Source: a virus (taxonomy: Duplodnaviria; Heunggongvirae; Uroviricota; Caudoviricetes). Taken from it: a DNA stretch of 36,962 bases. Below are positions 989 through 36,962 of the stretch, one piece after another. The first letter of the stretch is position 1. Every line of letters starts with the position of its first letter. The translations under genes were made by a program, and so were the position numbers. The notes beneath the pieces were generated by a model that ran no database searches, was not told the origin of the DNA, and worked only from the letters and a program-made list of their open reading frames with translations. The DNA is taken from IMG/VR virus record IMGVR_UViG_2534681703_000017. One strand, written 5' to 3'.

Positions 989-1261
989 ATGCAGTTATCG
1001 AGACAAGATCTAACTGACTTGTTTGTTCGTCGCGGACAAGACTGGTCTAGCAAAGCAATTGCAGCCGCCCTTGATAATAAAGGGGTTGATATCACTACGA
1101 TGGAGCGTGTACGCGGCTTAAAACCTGGTGCAATGCGTAACGTGTTTTATCGCCGCGTACCTGCATATGAATCAGCAATTGCAGAAGCAATTGGTGTGGA
1201 ACCGGAAGTTATCTGGCCATCACGTTATCGGAATAAAAATCCGCATAGCAACGCTGCATAG
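989..1261 (+). CDS. ner: Ner/Nlp-family DNA-binding regulator
   Basis: 90-aa ORF immediately upstream of the transposase; C-terminal EAIGVEPEVIWPSRY matches the Ner/Nlp signature (..DPWVIWPSRY) as remembered. Confidence 0.7.
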   Translation: MQLSRQDLTDLFVRRGQDWSSKAIAAALDNKGVDITTMERVRGLKPGAMRNVFYRRVPAYESAIAEAIGVEPEVIWPSRYRNKNPHSNAA

Positions 1262-1269
1262 GTGATGTT

Positions 1270-3312
1270 ATGTGGATTACAGCAAAAGAGTGTGCTGGCA
1301 TTGGAGGGCTACCAACACGTGAACACAATGTCAGAGCACGTCTAGATCGTGTAATTGAGAATAAACCTGAATTAAGGCGCAAGCGTGAAGGCACAAAAGC
1401 ATTCGAGTATCACATCGACTGCCTGCCCGCTGAAGCGGAGAAAGTTTTACGTAAGCGCCTGACCCATCAGGTCCTGGAAGATACGCAACTGCCCGCCGTG
1501 GTTGAGCAGAAGGCAGTTAAAAACGTTACCGTTCGCGATGAACTGGAGGTGATGGTCAAATGCCCGGAACTGGCATTACGCGAAGTTCAGGCACTGACTG
1601 ACAAGCAAAAAGCCATCGCAGATGCGCGGATATTGCTGGCTACCGAAGTGCATAAACTGCGTGAATACGCAGGAATGTCCAGGACGGCGGCGATAAAACA
1701 CATCGTTGATGGTATCCGGCAGGAGGCTTTGCCCGAGCGTGTTATTGTGGCAGGTAATACCGCCAATGCCCGACAGGGTAAGCGAACTGGCGTCAGTACA
1801 GGGAGTTTACAGGAATGGTATTCCGCCTGGCTGATGGCGCGCGGTGATGCCAATCAGTTACTGGCGTTACTGGCTCCCGGTCATCATAAGGGGACACCGT
1901 GGGAGCAGGTCTGGTGGTTGAGCGATTTCTTAATGTTCTATCGCTCATGGAAGCGCCCGACCGTTGAATATGCGTATCGCGAGTTTTCAGCCTGGTGGCA
2001 TGAAAAACACGCGAATGATGCGGGAATGCTGGCAGCACTGCCTTCAGTTCATGCAGTAAGACGGGTGTTAAGCAGCGTCCCGGTGATTGTTAAAGAGCGT
2101 TTCCGCTCCACCGGTTCAGCCTGGCGTTCGCTCAATCCCTTTGTGCGGCGCGACTGGACATCATTACCGGTTAATGCGGTATGGGTCGGGGATGGTCACT
2201 GTATGAAAATGACCGCGTTTAACCCCCTGACCGGCAATATTTTCCGGCCAGAAGTAACGCTGGTTATGGATGCGGGACAACGCTTTGTTGTGGGCTGGTC
2301 ACTGTCCCTGTCGGAGAACGTGATAGCCGTTGCTGATGCGTTACGTTACGGCATGGCGCAGCACGGGATACCGCTGGTTTATTACTCCGATAACGGGGGC
2401 GGTGAAAAAAACCGGGTGCTTGATGCCGATATTACCGGGATTCTGCCCCGGCTGGGTGTGGAACATCACACGGGGATACCAGGTAACCCGCAGGGGCGCG
2501 GGGTGATTGAAAGGCTTAATAAGGAAATTCCCCGGGATGTGGCCCTGAGTTTCCAGACGTACTGCTCAAAGGGAGCAGACAAGGAAACCGTAATGATGCA
2601 GCAACGGATTATGCAGTCAGCCATTAAGGCCACCCACAAAGGGAAAGAACTGACAAAACGGCAGGTTAAGGCGAGGGATGAAATCCCCACCTTTGAGCAG
2701 CTGATGGCAGCTATAGAGCTGGAGGTCAGACGCTATAACAACCGACCACACAGCAGCCTTCCCCGCAAAGAGGATGGCGAATATTACAGCCCGGCAGCGT
2801 ATCGCCGGAAACTGATAAAAGAGCAGAATGTTGAAATTGATTTCCTGTCGCCGGAAGAACTGCATGAAATGTTCAGACCGGAAGTGACGCGCAAAACATT
2901 TCGCGGGGAAATTCAGTTATTCAACAATATTTATTACTCGTATGAGCTGGCCGCAGAGCACGGGAATGAAGTCAGGGTCAGTTACGATATTCATGATGCA
3001 AACAGCGTCATTGTCCGGCGGGCTGATGGCTCTTATATCTGCGATGCCATCTGGAACGGTAACAAGGTTGATGCCTTCGCTAAACCAGTTATCGAACAAA
3101 AACTGGAGAAACGCGTCAGAGGCCGCATTGCACGGGCCACGCAGAAAATCGAAGAGGCTAAACGCGAGCTTACCCCGGCTATTACGCAGAAACCTGACTT
3201 TAATTTTGGATTTGGTCTGGAGCGCCCGGAGAAAAAGGATAAAGAAGAACTTTATTTATTTGCATCTGAACGCGAACGCAATTTAAAGAAAAACGGCACA
3301 AACAACCGTTAA
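1270..3312 (+). CDS. A: MuA-like DDE transposase
   Basis: 680 aa, position after ner and before a MuB-like ATPase; candidate DDE residues in VGDGHC, YYSDNGGG and GVIERLNKE contexts; N-terminal ...AKECAGIGGLP resembles the MuA N-terminus. Confidence 0.85.
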   Translation: MWITAKECAGIGGLPTREHNVRARLDRVIENKPELRRKREGTKAFEYHIDCLPAEAEKVLRKRLTHQVLEDTQLPAVVEQKAVKNVTVRDELEVMVKCPELALREVQALTDKQKAIADARILLATEVHKLREYAGMSRTAAIKHIVDGIRQEALPERVIVAGNTANARQGKRTGVSTGSLQEWYSAWLMARGDANQLLALLAPGHHKGTPWEQVWWLSDFLMFYRSWKRPTVEYAYREFSAWWHEKHANDAGMLAALPSVHAVRRVLSSVPVIVKERFRSTGSAWRSLNPFVRRDWTSLPVNAVWVGDGHCMKMTAFNPLTGNIFRPEVTLVMDAGQRFVVGWSLSLSENVIAVADALRYGMAQHGIPLVYYSDNGGGEKNRVLDADITGILPRLGVEHHTGIPGNPQGRGVIERLNKEIPRDVALSFQTYCSKGADKETVMMQQRIMQSAIKATHKGKELTKRQVKARDEIPTFEQLMAAIELEVRRYNNRPHSSLPRKEDGEYYSPAAYRRKLIKEQNVEIDFLSPEELHEMFRPEVTRKTFRGEIQLFNNIYYSYELAAEHGNEVRVSYDIHDANSVIVRRADGSYICDAIWNGNKVDAFAKPVIEQKLEKRVRGRIARATQKIEEAKRELTPAITQKPDFNFGFGLERPEKKDKEELYLFASERERNLKKNGTNNR

Positions 3313-3330: not shown

Positions 3331-4224
3331 ATGAGTTTAATTACGCAATTAAATGACGTAATGGCCCGTCGCGGCTATACGCAGACCCACGTCGCCCGTG
3401 CTATTGGTCGTAGCAGCGCCGTTATCAACCAGTATTTACAGGGTAAATATCAGGGCGATATGGCTGATATTGAAGAACGCATTTCTGCCTTCGTGACCCG
3501 TGAGCGGGAAAAGGAAAACAGCCGCCGTATTAAAGCAAAGTTTGTGACCACCGGTATGGCTGCCAAAGGACTGGAGGTGCTGGCCTACGCTCACCTGGAA
3601 TGTGAAATCTGTGTGCTGTATGGCGCGGCAGGTCTTGGCAAAACAATGATTCTGCGTGAATACGCCTCCAGAAACCGGGATGCGGTCCTGATTGAGGCTG
3701 ACCCGGGCTATACAGCCAGGACACTGCTTGAGGAGTTGTGCCGCCAGCTGGGGGTAAAGGTTCGCGGCAACATTCACGAACTGATTGATGCCTGTGTGCG
3801 CGAACTGCGTGATTCCGGTCGTCTGCTGATGGTGGACGAGGCTGAACTGCTCCCCTATCGCGCACTGGAGGTTCTGCGCCGTCTGCATGACAAAGCGGGT
3901 ATCGGGGTTGTCCTGGCGGGTATGCCTCGTCTTCTGATTAATCTCAAGGGGCGTCGTGGTGAATTTGCGCAGTTATACAGCCGCGTGGCGCTGGCGCTTA
4001 ACCTGGGCGACATGCTGGCGCAGGAAGATTTTAACCAGATAGCCACCGGGCTGATGCCGGAAGCAGCAGAACGGGAAATCAGCGAGGCGCTTTACGCACG
4101 CTCGCTGGGTAATGCCCGCCGCCTGTTCAAACTGGCGCGTGGTGTGTACCGGATTTGTGATATCAGCGATGCGCCGGTCAGTGTGCAGGCCATTGATAAA
4201 TTCGCAGAAATGTTAATTCACTGA
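3331..4224 (+). CDS. B: MuB-like AAA+ ATPase (transposition target protein)
   Basis: 297 aa directly downstream of the transposase; Walker A GAAGLGKT; Walker B-like LLMVDEAE. Confidence 0.8.
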   Translation: MSLITQLNDVMARRGYTQTHVARAIGRSSAVINQYLQGKYQGDMADIEERISAFVTREREKENSRRIKAKFVTTGMAAKGLEVLAYAHLECEICVLYGAAGLGKTMILREYASRNRDAVLIEADPGYTARTLLEELCRQLGVKVRGNIHELIDACVRELRDSGRLLMVDEAELLPYRALEVLRRLHDKAGIGVVLAGMPRLLINLKGRRGEFAQLYSRVALALNLGDMLAQEDFNQIATGLMPEAAEREISEALYARSLGNARRLFKLARGVYRICDISDAPVSVQAIDKFAEMLIH

Positions 4225-7834: not shown

Positions 7835-8023
7835 ATGAAAAACCGTAAGGCAAGACTGCTGATAGCAAAGCCCGGGCAGTGTATCCGTATCTCAAACAGG
7901 CTTGTTATTTACTATAGATATCTGGGTTTTAGGGGGGGTTCCTCTATTCGTTTTTACGGTGTCTGGCGGAGCAGAAGCGCGGCGCAAAACCGCTGGAGGA
8001 ATCACGGAGCAACAACACGATGA
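7835..8023 (+). CDS. Hypothetical small basic protein (62 aa)
   Basis: ATG at 7835 just after the previous stop and preceded by GGAAGGA; in frame with track ORF 7673..8023. Confidence 0.35.
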   Translation: MKNRKARLLIAKPGQCIRISNRLVIYYRYLGFRGGSSIRFYGVWRSRSAAQNRWRNHGATTR

Positions 8024-8205
8024 AAACTATCACTGTAACGGTTGAAATCGACGTTCCTGATAACGCAACGGACAATGATATTGCTGATTTTGTCGATGTC
8101 GAGTATGGGGAGTGCGGAAAAATGGCACTTGATAACCCATGCCGGACAGATGGAACGGAAATACTCGATGCCAGATGGGAACACGGACCTGATTACGCGA
8201 GGTGA
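8020..8205 (+). CDS. Hypothetical small acidic protein (61 aa)
   Basis: Start overlaps the previous stop. Confidence 0.4.
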   Translation: MKTITVTVEIDVPDNATDNDIADFVDVEYGECGKMALDNPCRTDGTEILDARWEHGPDYAR

Positions 8206-8208
8206 AAT

Positions 8209-8466
8209 ATGAGATTGGTTGACCTTTTTATTATCGCTCTGATTATTACGGTTATTGCGCTTTGCGTTACAACGGGCAAGGAACCTGATGTTCCTGGTGA
8301 TACGGGTGGGCATTGCGTGGTAAGGAGAAGTTTCATCAAAACCATTACGCATTGTGATGATGGAAGCGCCACCATGACCAGCGGCGATAAGTTTATATAC
8401 TGCTCTGCCGGGAAAGATGGCACGCCATCCTGTCATGAAGTGACGCTCAGTGATGGTGATAAATAA
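8209..8466 (+). CDS. Small exported or membrane-anchored Cys-rich protein (85 aa)
   Basis: Hydrophobic N-terminus (LVDLFIIALIITVIALCV) followed by a four-Cys soluble part. Confidence 0.4.
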   Translation: MRLVDLFIIALIITVIALCVTTGKEPDVPGDTGGHCVVRRSFIKTITHCDDGSATMTSGDKFIYCSAGKDGTPSCHEVTLSDGDK

Positions 8467-8499
8467 TTCATCATGTTGAGCGGATAATAATCATGCGCA

Positions 8500-8543
8500 G
8501 ACCAAAACATATGTTTTGGTCTGCCAAAAGTGATGTTTTGGTC
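8500..8543. promoter_or_regulatory. Perfect 22-bp palindrome GACCAAAACATATGTTTTGGTC (8500-8521) plus direct copy of half-site ATGTTTTGGTC (8533-8543)
   Basis: Read directly from sequence; candidate dimeric protein-binding site inside the early region. Confidence 0.45.
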
Positions 8544-8546
8544 ATT

Positions 8547-8825
8547 ATGAAAATTGAACAAATCGGAATAGCTGCCTTCAGGCAGCAGGCTGAAAGCGGT
8601 GGTGTGGATGAGTTCGTCGTGCAGCGGTTCGGTGGTGTGTATCACCTCTTCGCTGTGAATCGCCGCGCCGGGGTGTCCTATTTTCTACAGGAACGCCGTG
8701 GCGATTACAAGACGTGGCTGTCTCTTGACCGTGCCGCCGCGTTCCTGTCGGGGATTGGTGTTTCACGTTTTACCGTGCGTTTTGAGGATAACAAACATGC
8801 TGAAAAAGATGATCGGGGCCATTAA
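8547..8825 (+). CDS. Hypothetical protein (92 aa; track ORF starts at 8493)
   Basis: In-frame ATGs at 8493, 8511 and 8547; the first two lie inside the palindrome, so the start is uncertain. 3' end overlaps the GemA-like gene. Confidence 0.3.
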   Translation: MKIEQIGIAAFRQQAESGGVDEFVVQRFGGVYHLFAVNRRAGVSYFLQERRGDYKTWLSLDRAAAFLSGIGVSRFTVRFEDNKHAEKDDRGH

Positions 8826-9192
8826 AGCCGGTCAGGCGTATCTGGGGTGGGATGATGCCCTTTATCGCCAGACGCTGGCCCGCCTGACCGGTAAAACCAG
8901 CACCACACGCTGCAATCTCGATGAACTGCGCATCATCCGGGAATACATGCACGAACAGGGATTCCCGCGCAAGGCACCCGCTGGTAAAGGTCGCCGCCCT
9001 CGTGTTGCAATGAGCAGAAAATCAGTATTATCCAAAATTGAAGCGTTGCTGGCTGATGCCGGTCGTTCCTGGGCGTATGTAGAAGGACTGGCATCTCACA
9101 TGTATAAGCAACATGTGATCGAATGGCTGACGGATGAACAGCTTTTTGGAGTGATGGTGGCGCTGGTTAAAGATTCAAGGAGACGTAAATGA
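8797..9192 (+). CDS. GemA-like (Mu gp16 family) protein
   Basis: ATG at 8797 preceded by GAGGA; LGWDDALYRQTLARLTGKTS...LRIIREYM resembles GemA/DUF1018 as remembered; the track ORF 8698..9192 extends upstream in the same frame. Confidence 0.5.
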   Translation: MLKKMIGAIKAGQAYLGWDDALYRQTLARLTGKTSTTRCNLDELRIIREYMHEQGFPRKAPAGKGRRPRVAMSRKSVLSKIEALLADAGRSWAYVEGLASHMYKQHVIEWLTDEQLFGVMVALVKDSRRRK

Positions 9193-9527: not shown

Positions 9528-9539
9528 TATGAATAACAA

Positions 9540-9563
9540 CCTTCGCAAACGCGGAGGTTTTTT
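9540..9563 (+). terminator. Putative intrinsic terminator: CCTTCGC-AAAC-GCGGAGG (one G-U pair) followed by TTTTTT
   Basis: Stem-loop and T-run read from sequence, directly downstream of the gene ending at 9527. Confidence 0.5.
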
Positions 9564-9569
9564 ATGGTC

Positions 9570-9597
9570 TGTACAGGCGATCATGTATGGCTATAAT
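9570..9597 (+). promoter_or_regulatory. Putative promoter with strong -10 (TATAAT 9592-9597) and weak -35 (TGTACA 9570-9575)
   Basis: Hexamers read from sequence, 16-nt spacer; placed between the terminator and the Mor/C-like gene. A poor -35 would fit an activator-dependent promoter. Confidence 0.35.
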
Positions 9598-9626: not shown

Positions 9627-10094
9627 ATGCAGACCTTCAGTGAAACAGATCTTCGCGATGCACAGGCACTGCTACCCGATTCCGTACAGCAACTGATTAG
9701 CGTGATTGGCTTCCCCGCCCTGACCCGGTTGATTTGTTCTTTTGGTGGTGTGACGTTAAGTGGTAAAACCGGCGCACACGCCGAACGCACCGGCGGTGTC
9801 CATGCCCTGTTACATGACGTGCTGACCGAAGACGAAATCAACAAACTGATCCGCTTTCTTGGCGGTGCACCGTTTTACATTCCCCGTTGCGATCATGCGT
9901 TACGTGCCCTGCGTAACACCCGTTTTATGGCTGATTTACAGCAGCATGTAAAAGGCGGATGCTCACACCGGCAGGCGCTGGCACTGCTCTGTCCCCGTTA
10001 CGGCATTTCAGACCGGTACGCATGGCAGCTGATACACCGACGACAAAAACAGACTTCGCTGAAAAGCCCCACCCAGGTGGGGCTTTTTGATTAA
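9627..10094 (+). CDS. Mor/C-family transcription activator
   Basis: 155 aa; FLGGAPFYIPR and C-terminal HTH-like ISDRYAWQLIHRR resemble the Mu Mor/C family (..GGQVYIPRG..) as remembered. Confidence 0.6.
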   Translation: MQTFSETDLRDAQALLPDSVQQLISVIGFPALTRLICSFGGVTLSGKTGAHAERTGGVHALLHDVLTEDEINKLIRFLGGAPFYIPRCDHALRALRNTRFMADLQQHVKGGCSHRQALALLCPRYGISDRYAWQLIHRRQKQTSLKSPTQVGLFD

Positions 10095-36383: not shown

Positions 36384-36962
36384 ATGAAAATCAGAGCGGT
36401 AAAGGGCATCAGAAACGCCCATTATCTTGAAAATGGTGCGGTTGACTGCGAGGTGTTATTTGAAGGTGAAACGGAATTCGTCCCGTATACCGCCATGCAG
36501 GATGATACCGCACCGACAGGCCAGCGCATCTGGGAAGAGTTGCAGAACGGCAAATGGGGCGAAATCGCCCCTTTCACTGTCACGCCGGAACTTATCGCCG
36601 CGGCGAAGGATGCCAAAAAGCAGGAAATCGAGGCATGGCGCACAGAACAGGAAGCACTGCCGTTCACCTTTGAATGGAACGGTCGCACCTGGAACGCTGG
36701 CCCCGACTCAATGGCCCGTCTTTATCCGGTAGTAATGGCGGCGAAATCCGATACGGCACGAACCGCCCTTGCATGGGGTGATGCCGATAATCAACAGGTG
36801 AAACTGTCAATGCCGGAACTGGAAGAACTGGCGACAGCAATGGCGCAGGCGCAGGTCGATCGCAATGACGAGATTTATCAGCGCCAGCGTGAAATGAAGG
36901 AAGAACTGAATAACCTGAATGATTTACGCTCAGTCAGAGCGATGCTGATTAGCAGTAATTAG
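36384..36962 (+). CDS. Putative tail fiber assembly/chaperone-like protein (DUF4376-like)
   Basis: 192-aa ORF after the Stf-like fiber with AACGGGGAATAAAAC upstream; family assignment uncertain. Confidence 0.4.
   Translation: MKIRAVKGIRNAHYLENGAVDCEVLFEGETEFVPYTAMQDDTAPTGQRIWEELQNGKWGEIAPFTVTPELIAAAKDAKKQEIEAWRTEQEALPFTFEWNGRTWNAGPDSMARLYPVVMAAKSDTARTALAWGDADNQQVKLSMPELEELATAMAQAQVDRNDEIYQRQREMKEELNNLNDLRSVRAMLISSN

Follow-up and report, generated by a model that had tools for sequence, protein, structure and literature searches.

The early region of the Mu-like prophage analysed here contains a 40-nt element, CCA-N12-TGG-N4-CCA-N12-TGG (8502-8541), whose four half-sites are retained at fixed spacing upstream of the small gene ORF92 in divergent lineages. 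All positions refer to the window, i.e. the whole stretch of DNA that was analysed (36,962 nt). Based on sequence comparison, we consider this four-box site a putative protein recognition site controlling the ORF92-gemA module and assign a probability of roughly 45% to this reading. The element is located in the 80-nt gap between the phrog_8391 ORF and ORF92, in a run of small early ORFs, and the 3' end of ORF92 overlaps gemA by 29 nt (Table 1). No earlier description of the four-box element was found in the searchable literature.

Table 1 The four-box element and its genomic setting in the window.
Feature	Position	Strand	Remarks
Mu-like transposable prophage	the 36,962-nt window		early region holds the four-box site
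HTH repressor	173-850	minus	
Ner-like winged-helix gene	989-1261		
A-like ORF	1270-3312		long
B-like ORF	3331-4224		long
Small ORF, phrog_8391	8209-8466		5' neighbour of the gap bearing the site
Left edge of module	8484-8497		homology breakpoints of relatives; weakly conserved -10-like NNTAAT at 8486-8491
Perfect 28-bp palindrome, arms GCAGACCAAAACAT and ATGTTTTGGTCTGC	8497-8524	plus	14-nt arms; contains dyad site 1
Dyad site 1, box A CCA(AAA) and box B (TTT)TGG	8502-8519		CCA-N12-TGG; triplets (almost) invariant across 10 divergent lineages
Spacer TCTG	8520-8523		4 nt; symmetry centre of the 40-bp element; tetraloop in the alternative long-hairpin fold
Dyad site 2, box B' CCA(AAA) and box C (TTT)TGG	8524-8541		variable centre
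ORF92, phrog_7844	8547-8825	plus	92 aa; always 3' of the four-box element
GemA-family gene	8797-9192	plus	Pfam PF06252, E = 3.8e-18; second gene of the ORF92-gemA module
Mor-family activator	9627-10094		

The element consists of two tandem dyad sites

The original prediction had described a perfect 22-bp palindrome with 11-bp arms, followed by a direct copy of its half-site. Both were confirmed: the palindrome, GACCAAAACATATGTTTTGGTC, occupies 8500-8521, and ATGTTTTGGTC recurs as a third exact copy at 8533-8543. The true arms are longer, however, with 14 nt each (8497-8524). This is the longest perfect hairpin of the entire window; in 100 shuffled versions of the window the longest stem had a mean of 9.0 and was never above 11, compared to 14 observed. 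The stem is A/T-rich (G-C pairs at 5 of 14 positions) and stable.

The proposed layout of one inverted plus one direct half-site, however, gives way to a different one. What had been taken for a direct half-site is better seen as the 3' arm of another dyad, CCAAAA-GTGATG-TTTTGG, which is weaker and imperfect, so that a 22-nt unit occurs twice and yields four half-sites, named A, B, B' and C, which are arranged as two tandem 18-bp dyads with a 22-bp period. The pattern CCAWWW-N6-WWWTGG matches the window three times (0.16 expected). The third match, CCATTATCTTGAAAATGG at 36419-36436, lies inside the tail-fibre-assembly-like last ORF (36384-36962) and is probably due to chance; the stop codon of this ORF forms the right end of the window, and the right end of the prophage is thus not included. 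We found no further copies of the element in the window, and a search of the window for the half-site with up to two mismatches revealed no copy above chance. Likewise, the suggested likeness to the operator repeats at 868-916 (ACAAAAATCCG) is limited to an A-run common to both. A copy of the repressor/Ner operators (ACAAAAATCCG(T), 868-916) was rejected as an explanation, with no related half-site nearby at up to two mismatches.

The palindrome had also been proposed to overlap possible start codons of the next ORF. In-frame ATGs at 8493 and 8511 do precede or overlap it, but these are not conserved in relatives, and the real start lies elsewhere. The conserved start of ORF92 is the ATG at 8547, 5 nt past the end of the element, which PGAP calls in four of five annotated relatives and which agrees with the MK.E N-terminus of distant homologues called from that codon. 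No Shine-Dalgarno sequence precedes this ATG. A programmed frameshift or leader peptide was rejected because two stop codons (TAA TAA, 8485-8490) close the upstream frame. Similarly, a coding explanation does not apply, as the boxes encode the 'FGxPK' C-terminus of an upstream gene only in L023 and L059 and are non-coding elsewhere. A mini-ORF of five codons, (A/G)TG TTT TGG TCA TTA TGA (8533-8550), ends with a stop codon that overlaps the ORF92 start (ATGA); its own start is ATG or GTG in 6/6 centre variants of the E. coli group, to which it is restricted, being absent from the distant lineages.

Conservation of the arms in E. coli relatives

The conservation in related prophages, by which the original prediction was to be judged, is found in every E. 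coli genome that carries the module. Using a 1.3-kb query, the ORF92-gemA module was detected in 58 of 5,426 complete E. coli genomes, and the element is present in all 58. A 53-nt query comprising the element only retrieved 58 genomes as well, each with at least 80% query cover, and gave no other occurrence in the 5,426 genomes. The original prediction had suggested a search of prophage and host genome with the half-site; with the 53-nt query, the element occurs solely at the module locus of these E. coli genomes. A dispersed host palindrome of the REP/BIME type was rejected on the basis of this distribution.

We counted variation within the arms in 20 distinct E. coli-group sequences with intact ORF92. 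Only 2 of 32 arm positions are variable, compared to 51 of 92 third-codon positions (Fisher p = 3e-7), while the diversity of the two 6-nt centres is at least that of synonymous sites. Site 1 contains the centres CATATG, TATATG, AGTATT, CATGTT, CATGTG, CATGTA or CATATA, and site 2 GTGATG, GTAGTG, GTAATG, GCAATG, GCGATG or ATGATG. As judged from these sequences, the arms are under purifying selection or functional constraint and the centres are not. In two E. coli genomes (L066, L067), ORF92 is frameshifted and apparently pseudogenised; L066 has kept all four boxes and shows a 1-nt deletion in the palindrome centre.

The four boxes persist in distant lineages

DNA encoding more distant homologues (ORF92 protein 52-87% identical) was obtained from IMG/VR, GTDB genomes, metagenomes and Logan assemblies. 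In most of these lineages the ORF92 homologue precedes gemA in a Mu-like context. In the L062-L065 group it is located before the small terminase gene of a non-Mu phage, with the same boxes upstream. The upstream regions of 10 divergent lineages, with downstream proteins 52-73% identical to that of the window, could be aligned ungapped, with 0 indels across 43 nt. Identities per column (out of 10) were 10/10/10 for the first CCA, 9/10/8 for the first TGG, 9/10/10 for the second CCA and 10/10/10 for the second TGG, compared to 4-6 for the interior columns. The distance between the element and the start codon varies from 2 to 14 nt among the divergent lineages.

A scan of IMG/VR with the 40-nt four-box pattern gave 33 loci, of which 21 adjoin an ORF92-type gene; the other 12 are mostly other repeats and correspond approximately to the chance expectation. 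Scans of metagenomes and GTDB added few lineages, and the alignment of remote homologues was too divergent to be used for a locus scan. A homologue in a Pseudomonas phage overlaps the preceding gene and has no such element, and no close homologue was found in GenBank phages. In a prophage of Leminorella grimontii (L059), the ORF92 homologue and gemA are separated by an inserted HNH endonuclease gene together with a small ORF (positions 1762-2576 of L059, not of the window); the overlap of the two genes is therefore not universal.

Protein recognition or RNA structure

Symmetric half-sites at fixed spacing around a variable centre are the pattern of a dyad-symmetric operator, and this is what the element presents. 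Across distant lineages it is the dyad-symmetric triplets and their fixed spacing that are conserved, which points to recognition by a symmetric protein rather than to a hairpin acting on its own. The site for a dimeric DNA-binding protein suggested in the original prediction is therefore in line with the conservation pattern, but a binder with a recognisable DNA-binding fold did not emerge. The perfect palindrome with 14-nt arms, in turn, does not share this deep conservation; it is specific to the E. coli group, where site 1 has been sharpened, possibly via quasi-palindrome correction.

An alternative explanation, which we regard as somewhat unlikely, is an RNA structure within the polycistronic early transcript. 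Here, the ORF92 leader would fold into one or two hairpins or a single long one and modulate translation, as a fold switch, or mRNA stability and processing, with no sequence-specific protein involved. The location 5 nt before an AUG that lacks a Shine-Dalgarno sequence suits such a role, and as RNA the hairpin of the window reaches approximately -20 kcal/mol (z = -6 for the 65-nt leader). Leaders of the E. coli group have z-scores between -3.8 and -6.1, with hairpins as stable as -24.4 kcal/mol (z = -6.1). This stability is not conserved, however, as the leaders of distant lineages show folding z-scores from +0.7 to -2.2. In these lineages the interior complementarity of the 18-nt sites is no better than in a cross-lineage control, in which the 5' half of one lineage was paired with the 3' half of another, and the closing triplets are invariant instead of covarying. 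Even in close relatives, the top of the stem is repeatedly broken (C.U, C.A). No Rfam family accounts for the element either, with the best overlapping match reaching 19.5 bits compared to a gathering score of 55.8 (E = 0.94).

Two folds have to be distinguished with regard to base pairing. The model with two hairpins was rejected, since its paired counts on the alignment are not above those of shuffles. The model symmetric about the 4-nt spacer, with A pairing C and B pairing B', gave 78.9% paired cells compared to 72.3 +/- 1.5 in shuffles (0/500) and also more double changes, although these comprise few independent events in related sequences, where kinship alone can exceed shuffles without any structure. 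For example, both inner half-sites flip jointly from UA to AU in the L062-L065 group. Dyad symmetry about the spacer is thus maintained, which also speaks for the protein recognition site. The two arm substitutions of the E. coli group (C->T at 8498 and A->G at 8501) both yield a plus-strand G.U, and L005 carries one double change from C-G to A-U, but among all mismatched cells G.U (12) is not above A.C (15), so that there is no sign of selection for plus-strand RNA pairing. The two folds are nearly isoenergetic for the 46-nt core of the window (-19.4 kcal/mol with two hairpins and -21.6 kcal/mol with the long hairpin). The winning fold differs among variants, and with the GC flanks included the two-hairpin fold wins for the window.

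A possible mode of action

If the four boxes are a protein recognition site, the two adjacent 18-bp sites CCA(W)3-N6-(W)3TGG would form a 40-bp dyad-symmetric cis-regulatory element of ORF92. Since the site centres are 22 bp, or about two helical turns, apart, both sites would face the same side of the helix. A symmetric protein may occupy sites 1 and 2 with one dimer per site, and this occupancy would set the expression of ORF92 and the overlapping gemA. With site 2 ending 5 nt short of a start codon that has no Shine-Dalgarno sequence, and with ORF92 overlapping gemA, the output of the whole module could be controlled in this way. Separate control of the ORF92-gemA module is plausible. The site may act on the DNA, as operator or roadblock, and in those lineages whose element embeds a promoter this would amount to a classical operator; alternatively, it may be a translational operator on the leader RNA. 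The position of the element 5 nt before the start codon fits a role at the RNA level equally well.

A promoter scan revealed no convincing sigma-70 promoter at the element in the window, nor was a consistent one present across most lineages. A DNA operator in the window would thus have to be a roadblock or act on a very weak promoter. The only exception is a possibly related phage (L077), in which the boxes overlap a sigma-70 promoter matching at 11/12 positions with an extended -10 (TTGACC-16-TGgTATAAT); homology of its protein to ORF92 was not established (hhalign probability 5%). Inspection of the window by eye gave no convincing sigma-54 promoter. The weak NNTAAT at 8486-8491 is partly conserved across upstream contexts and has no -35 element; it would set the transcription start at the foot of the palindrome. 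A site for a Mor/C-type activator was rejected, as its spacing to any usable -10 would place the transcription start inside the ORF.

Module boundary and the unlikely host-factor and terminator readings

The element also marks the left edge of the conserved module. Matches of relatives to the 1.3-kb query often start at 8484, 8488 or 8497, and at least five upstream contexts, unrelated to each other, abut the element. Furthermore, the same palindrome-centre variants are found behind different upstream modules. That mosaic junctions can carry conserved boundary sequences is well established (PMC3029335), and the element, as a short conserved segment located exactly where the homology of relatives begins, resembles such phage mosaic linkers. 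It might thus be a crossover linker or neutral by-product, with a palindrome generated by quasi-palindrome template switching and no regulatory role. We consider this explanation improbable. Unlike the linkers described (PMC3029335), the element is under strong selection, has internal dyads and is always accompanied by the downstream gene. The arms are far more conserved than the synonymous sites of the adjacent gene, and boxes and spacing persist at 52-73% protein identity, where neighbouring nucleotides have diverged. A crossover role would, in addition, be compatible with a regulatory one.

It is very unlikely that the element serves a host transcription factor of the GntR/FadR type as operator and thereby links the module to the physiology of the host. 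The UxuR/ExuR box AAATTGGTATACCAATTT (PMC8092373) is similar to the inner dyad, TTGGT-N2-(A/G)CCAA, in half-sites and 2-bp spacer. In a hand alignment, counted without a statistical model, 13/16 positions agree in L062, L064 and L065, but only 10/16 in the window, and the site of the E. coli group is the poorest match. The best-conserved outer boxes, A and C, are left unexplained by this operator, and no promoter is evident in the window.

An intrinsic or factor-dependent terminator or attenuator within the early operon has a very low probability despite the strong stem-loop in an intergenic gap. The original prediction had already argued that the palindrome is not a terminator because a T-run is missing, which stands for both strands: the stem is followed by CAAAAG on the plus strand and by GCATGATT on the minus strand. 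The terminator scan lists 7930-7946 and 9538-9559 as terminator-like but not 8497-8524. In addition, the genes located downstream, gemA and ORF112, are part of the same early block, which probably terminates at 9538-9559.

The ORF92 family as candidate binder

The leading and most economical candidate for the binder of the four-box site is the ORF92-family protein itself. As site and gene travel together through unrelated contexts, autoregulation by the ORF92 product would be the most parsimonious arrangement; this linkage is suggestive, but not proof. The family has many invariant arginines. Structure and family searches gave no recognisable HTH or RHH DNA-binding fold in ORF92, and PADLOC no match. 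A full-length match to the NCBIfam model NF041544 (ParC family partition-associated protein) reached 17.1 bits (E = 0.0033), which is below the cut-off of 95 bits, and five of ten divergent ORF92 relatives match the same model weakly (best E = 2.9e-4). The function of the ParC protein of IncP-9 plasmids is uncharacterised (PMC12421886).

Homologues of ORF92 are also encoded on plasmids of Yersinia and Pseudomonas, including one of 4.5 kb. In Yersinia (L103, L104 and L106; two plasmid records and one Logan contig), TCCAAAATATTTGGA is located 30 nt upstream of the homologue, and a sequence of this type is degraded upstream of the homologue on a Y. ruckeri plasmid (L107). The 4.5-kb Pseudomonas plasmid carries GTGTGGTC-GCCA-GACCACAC upstream of its homologue, and a Y. 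frederiksenii plasmid an unrelated palindrome over a promoter-like sequence. Such palindromes next to remote homologues are in line with protein recognition, and their recurrence favours the product of the family itself as binder. It is conceivable, although we regard it as unlikely, that ORF92/phrog_7844 and its remote relatives, including IncP-9 ParC, are new small nucleic-acid-binding regulators with an eL38-like fold and a specificity for CCA(W)3/(W)3TGG dyads. In that case, the four-box site would be an autoregulatory operator, either on the DNA or as a translational operator on the leader RNA, gating the gemA module. The gemA function of Mu is reportedly expressed constitutively in lysogens and alters host physiology.

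Comparison with known systems

Tandem dyad operators and leader elements are a well-known type, to which the four-box element, with its putative function, can be assigned. Tandem operators of temperate phages (OR and OL of lambda, P22 and 434), as well as the tandem 18-bp ARG boxes and the TyrR boxes of E. coli, are dyad-symmetric. The element resembles these operators, in which the sites measure 14-18 bp, the outer half-sites are conserved and the centre varies, and in which two adjacent sites, spaced by about two helical turns from centre to centre, directly precede the regulated gene. The element differs from them in its half-site, as CCAWWW matches none of these systems, in the lack of an evident promoter in the window and of an assigned HTH protein, and in its position, since it abuts a start codon inside an operon. 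A second comparison is offered by the sites of the activators Ogr of P2 and Delta of P4, TGT-N12-ACA, which are found at about -55 of P2 late promoters. Their geometry is the same, with invariant inverted triplets of 3 bp located 12 bp apart; in contrast, the four-box element has other triplets and two tandem copies, with no promoter between element and ATG.

Translational operators, on the other hand, are known for the MS2 coat protein, RegA and gp32 of T4, Com/mom of Mu and the mRNAs of ribosomal proteins. As in these cases, a structured element is located immediately 5' of the start codon, and the eL38-like fold of ORF92 is of a kind found in RNA-binding proteins, although RNA binding by ORF92 itself would be hypothetical. 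Unlike those operators, the element shows no conserved hairpin and no clear covariation, and its boxes are symmetric as DNA.

If protein recognition of the four boxes holds true, it would provide the first functional handle on a widespread, unannotated family of small phage and plasmid proteins, as well as insight into the control of the gemA module in Mu-like prophages. It would also be a clean case of a regulatory site doubling as a junction for the exchange of early-region modules between prophages. The defined 40-bp site and the 92-aa candidate binder form a directly testable pair. The finding would be more notable if ORF92 proves to represent a new class of small regulators that bind nucleic acids, and ordinary if the element is merely a structural or mutational by-product.

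Further hairpins and palindromes of the window

Several other inverted repeats were observed. The terminator-like hairpin at 7930-7946 lies within the early region and is followed by a T-run (TTCGTTTTT). In relatives of the E2348/69 type (L003, L005) its homologue is located about 100 nt upstream of the four-box element, from which it follows that the window has an insertion of about 520 bp between hairpin and element. This insertion carries two small ORFs, 8020-8205 (phrog_8773) and the phrog_8391 ORF.

A palindrome with 11-nt arms near the middle of the window (CGTTTTTAAAA-GGG-TTTTAAAAACG, 17794-17819) and a related one near its left end (CGTTTTAAA-TGCT-TTTAAAACG, 54-76) raise the question of whether they belong to a gyrase-site region at the centre or are bound by end-binding proteins. 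Shortly before the Mor-family gene, the terminator-like hairpin at 9538-9559 is followed by TTTTAT and, directly 3', by a promoter-like sequence matching at 10/12 positions (TGTACA-16-TATAAT, 9570-9597); the early transcript probably ends here, and the activator gene is probably transcribed from this promoter. A further perfect palindrome, AAAAGCCCCACC-CA-GGTGGGGCTTTT (10061-10087; arms of 12 nt), is located between A and T runs where the Mor-family ORF has its 3' end and looks like a bidirectional terminator.
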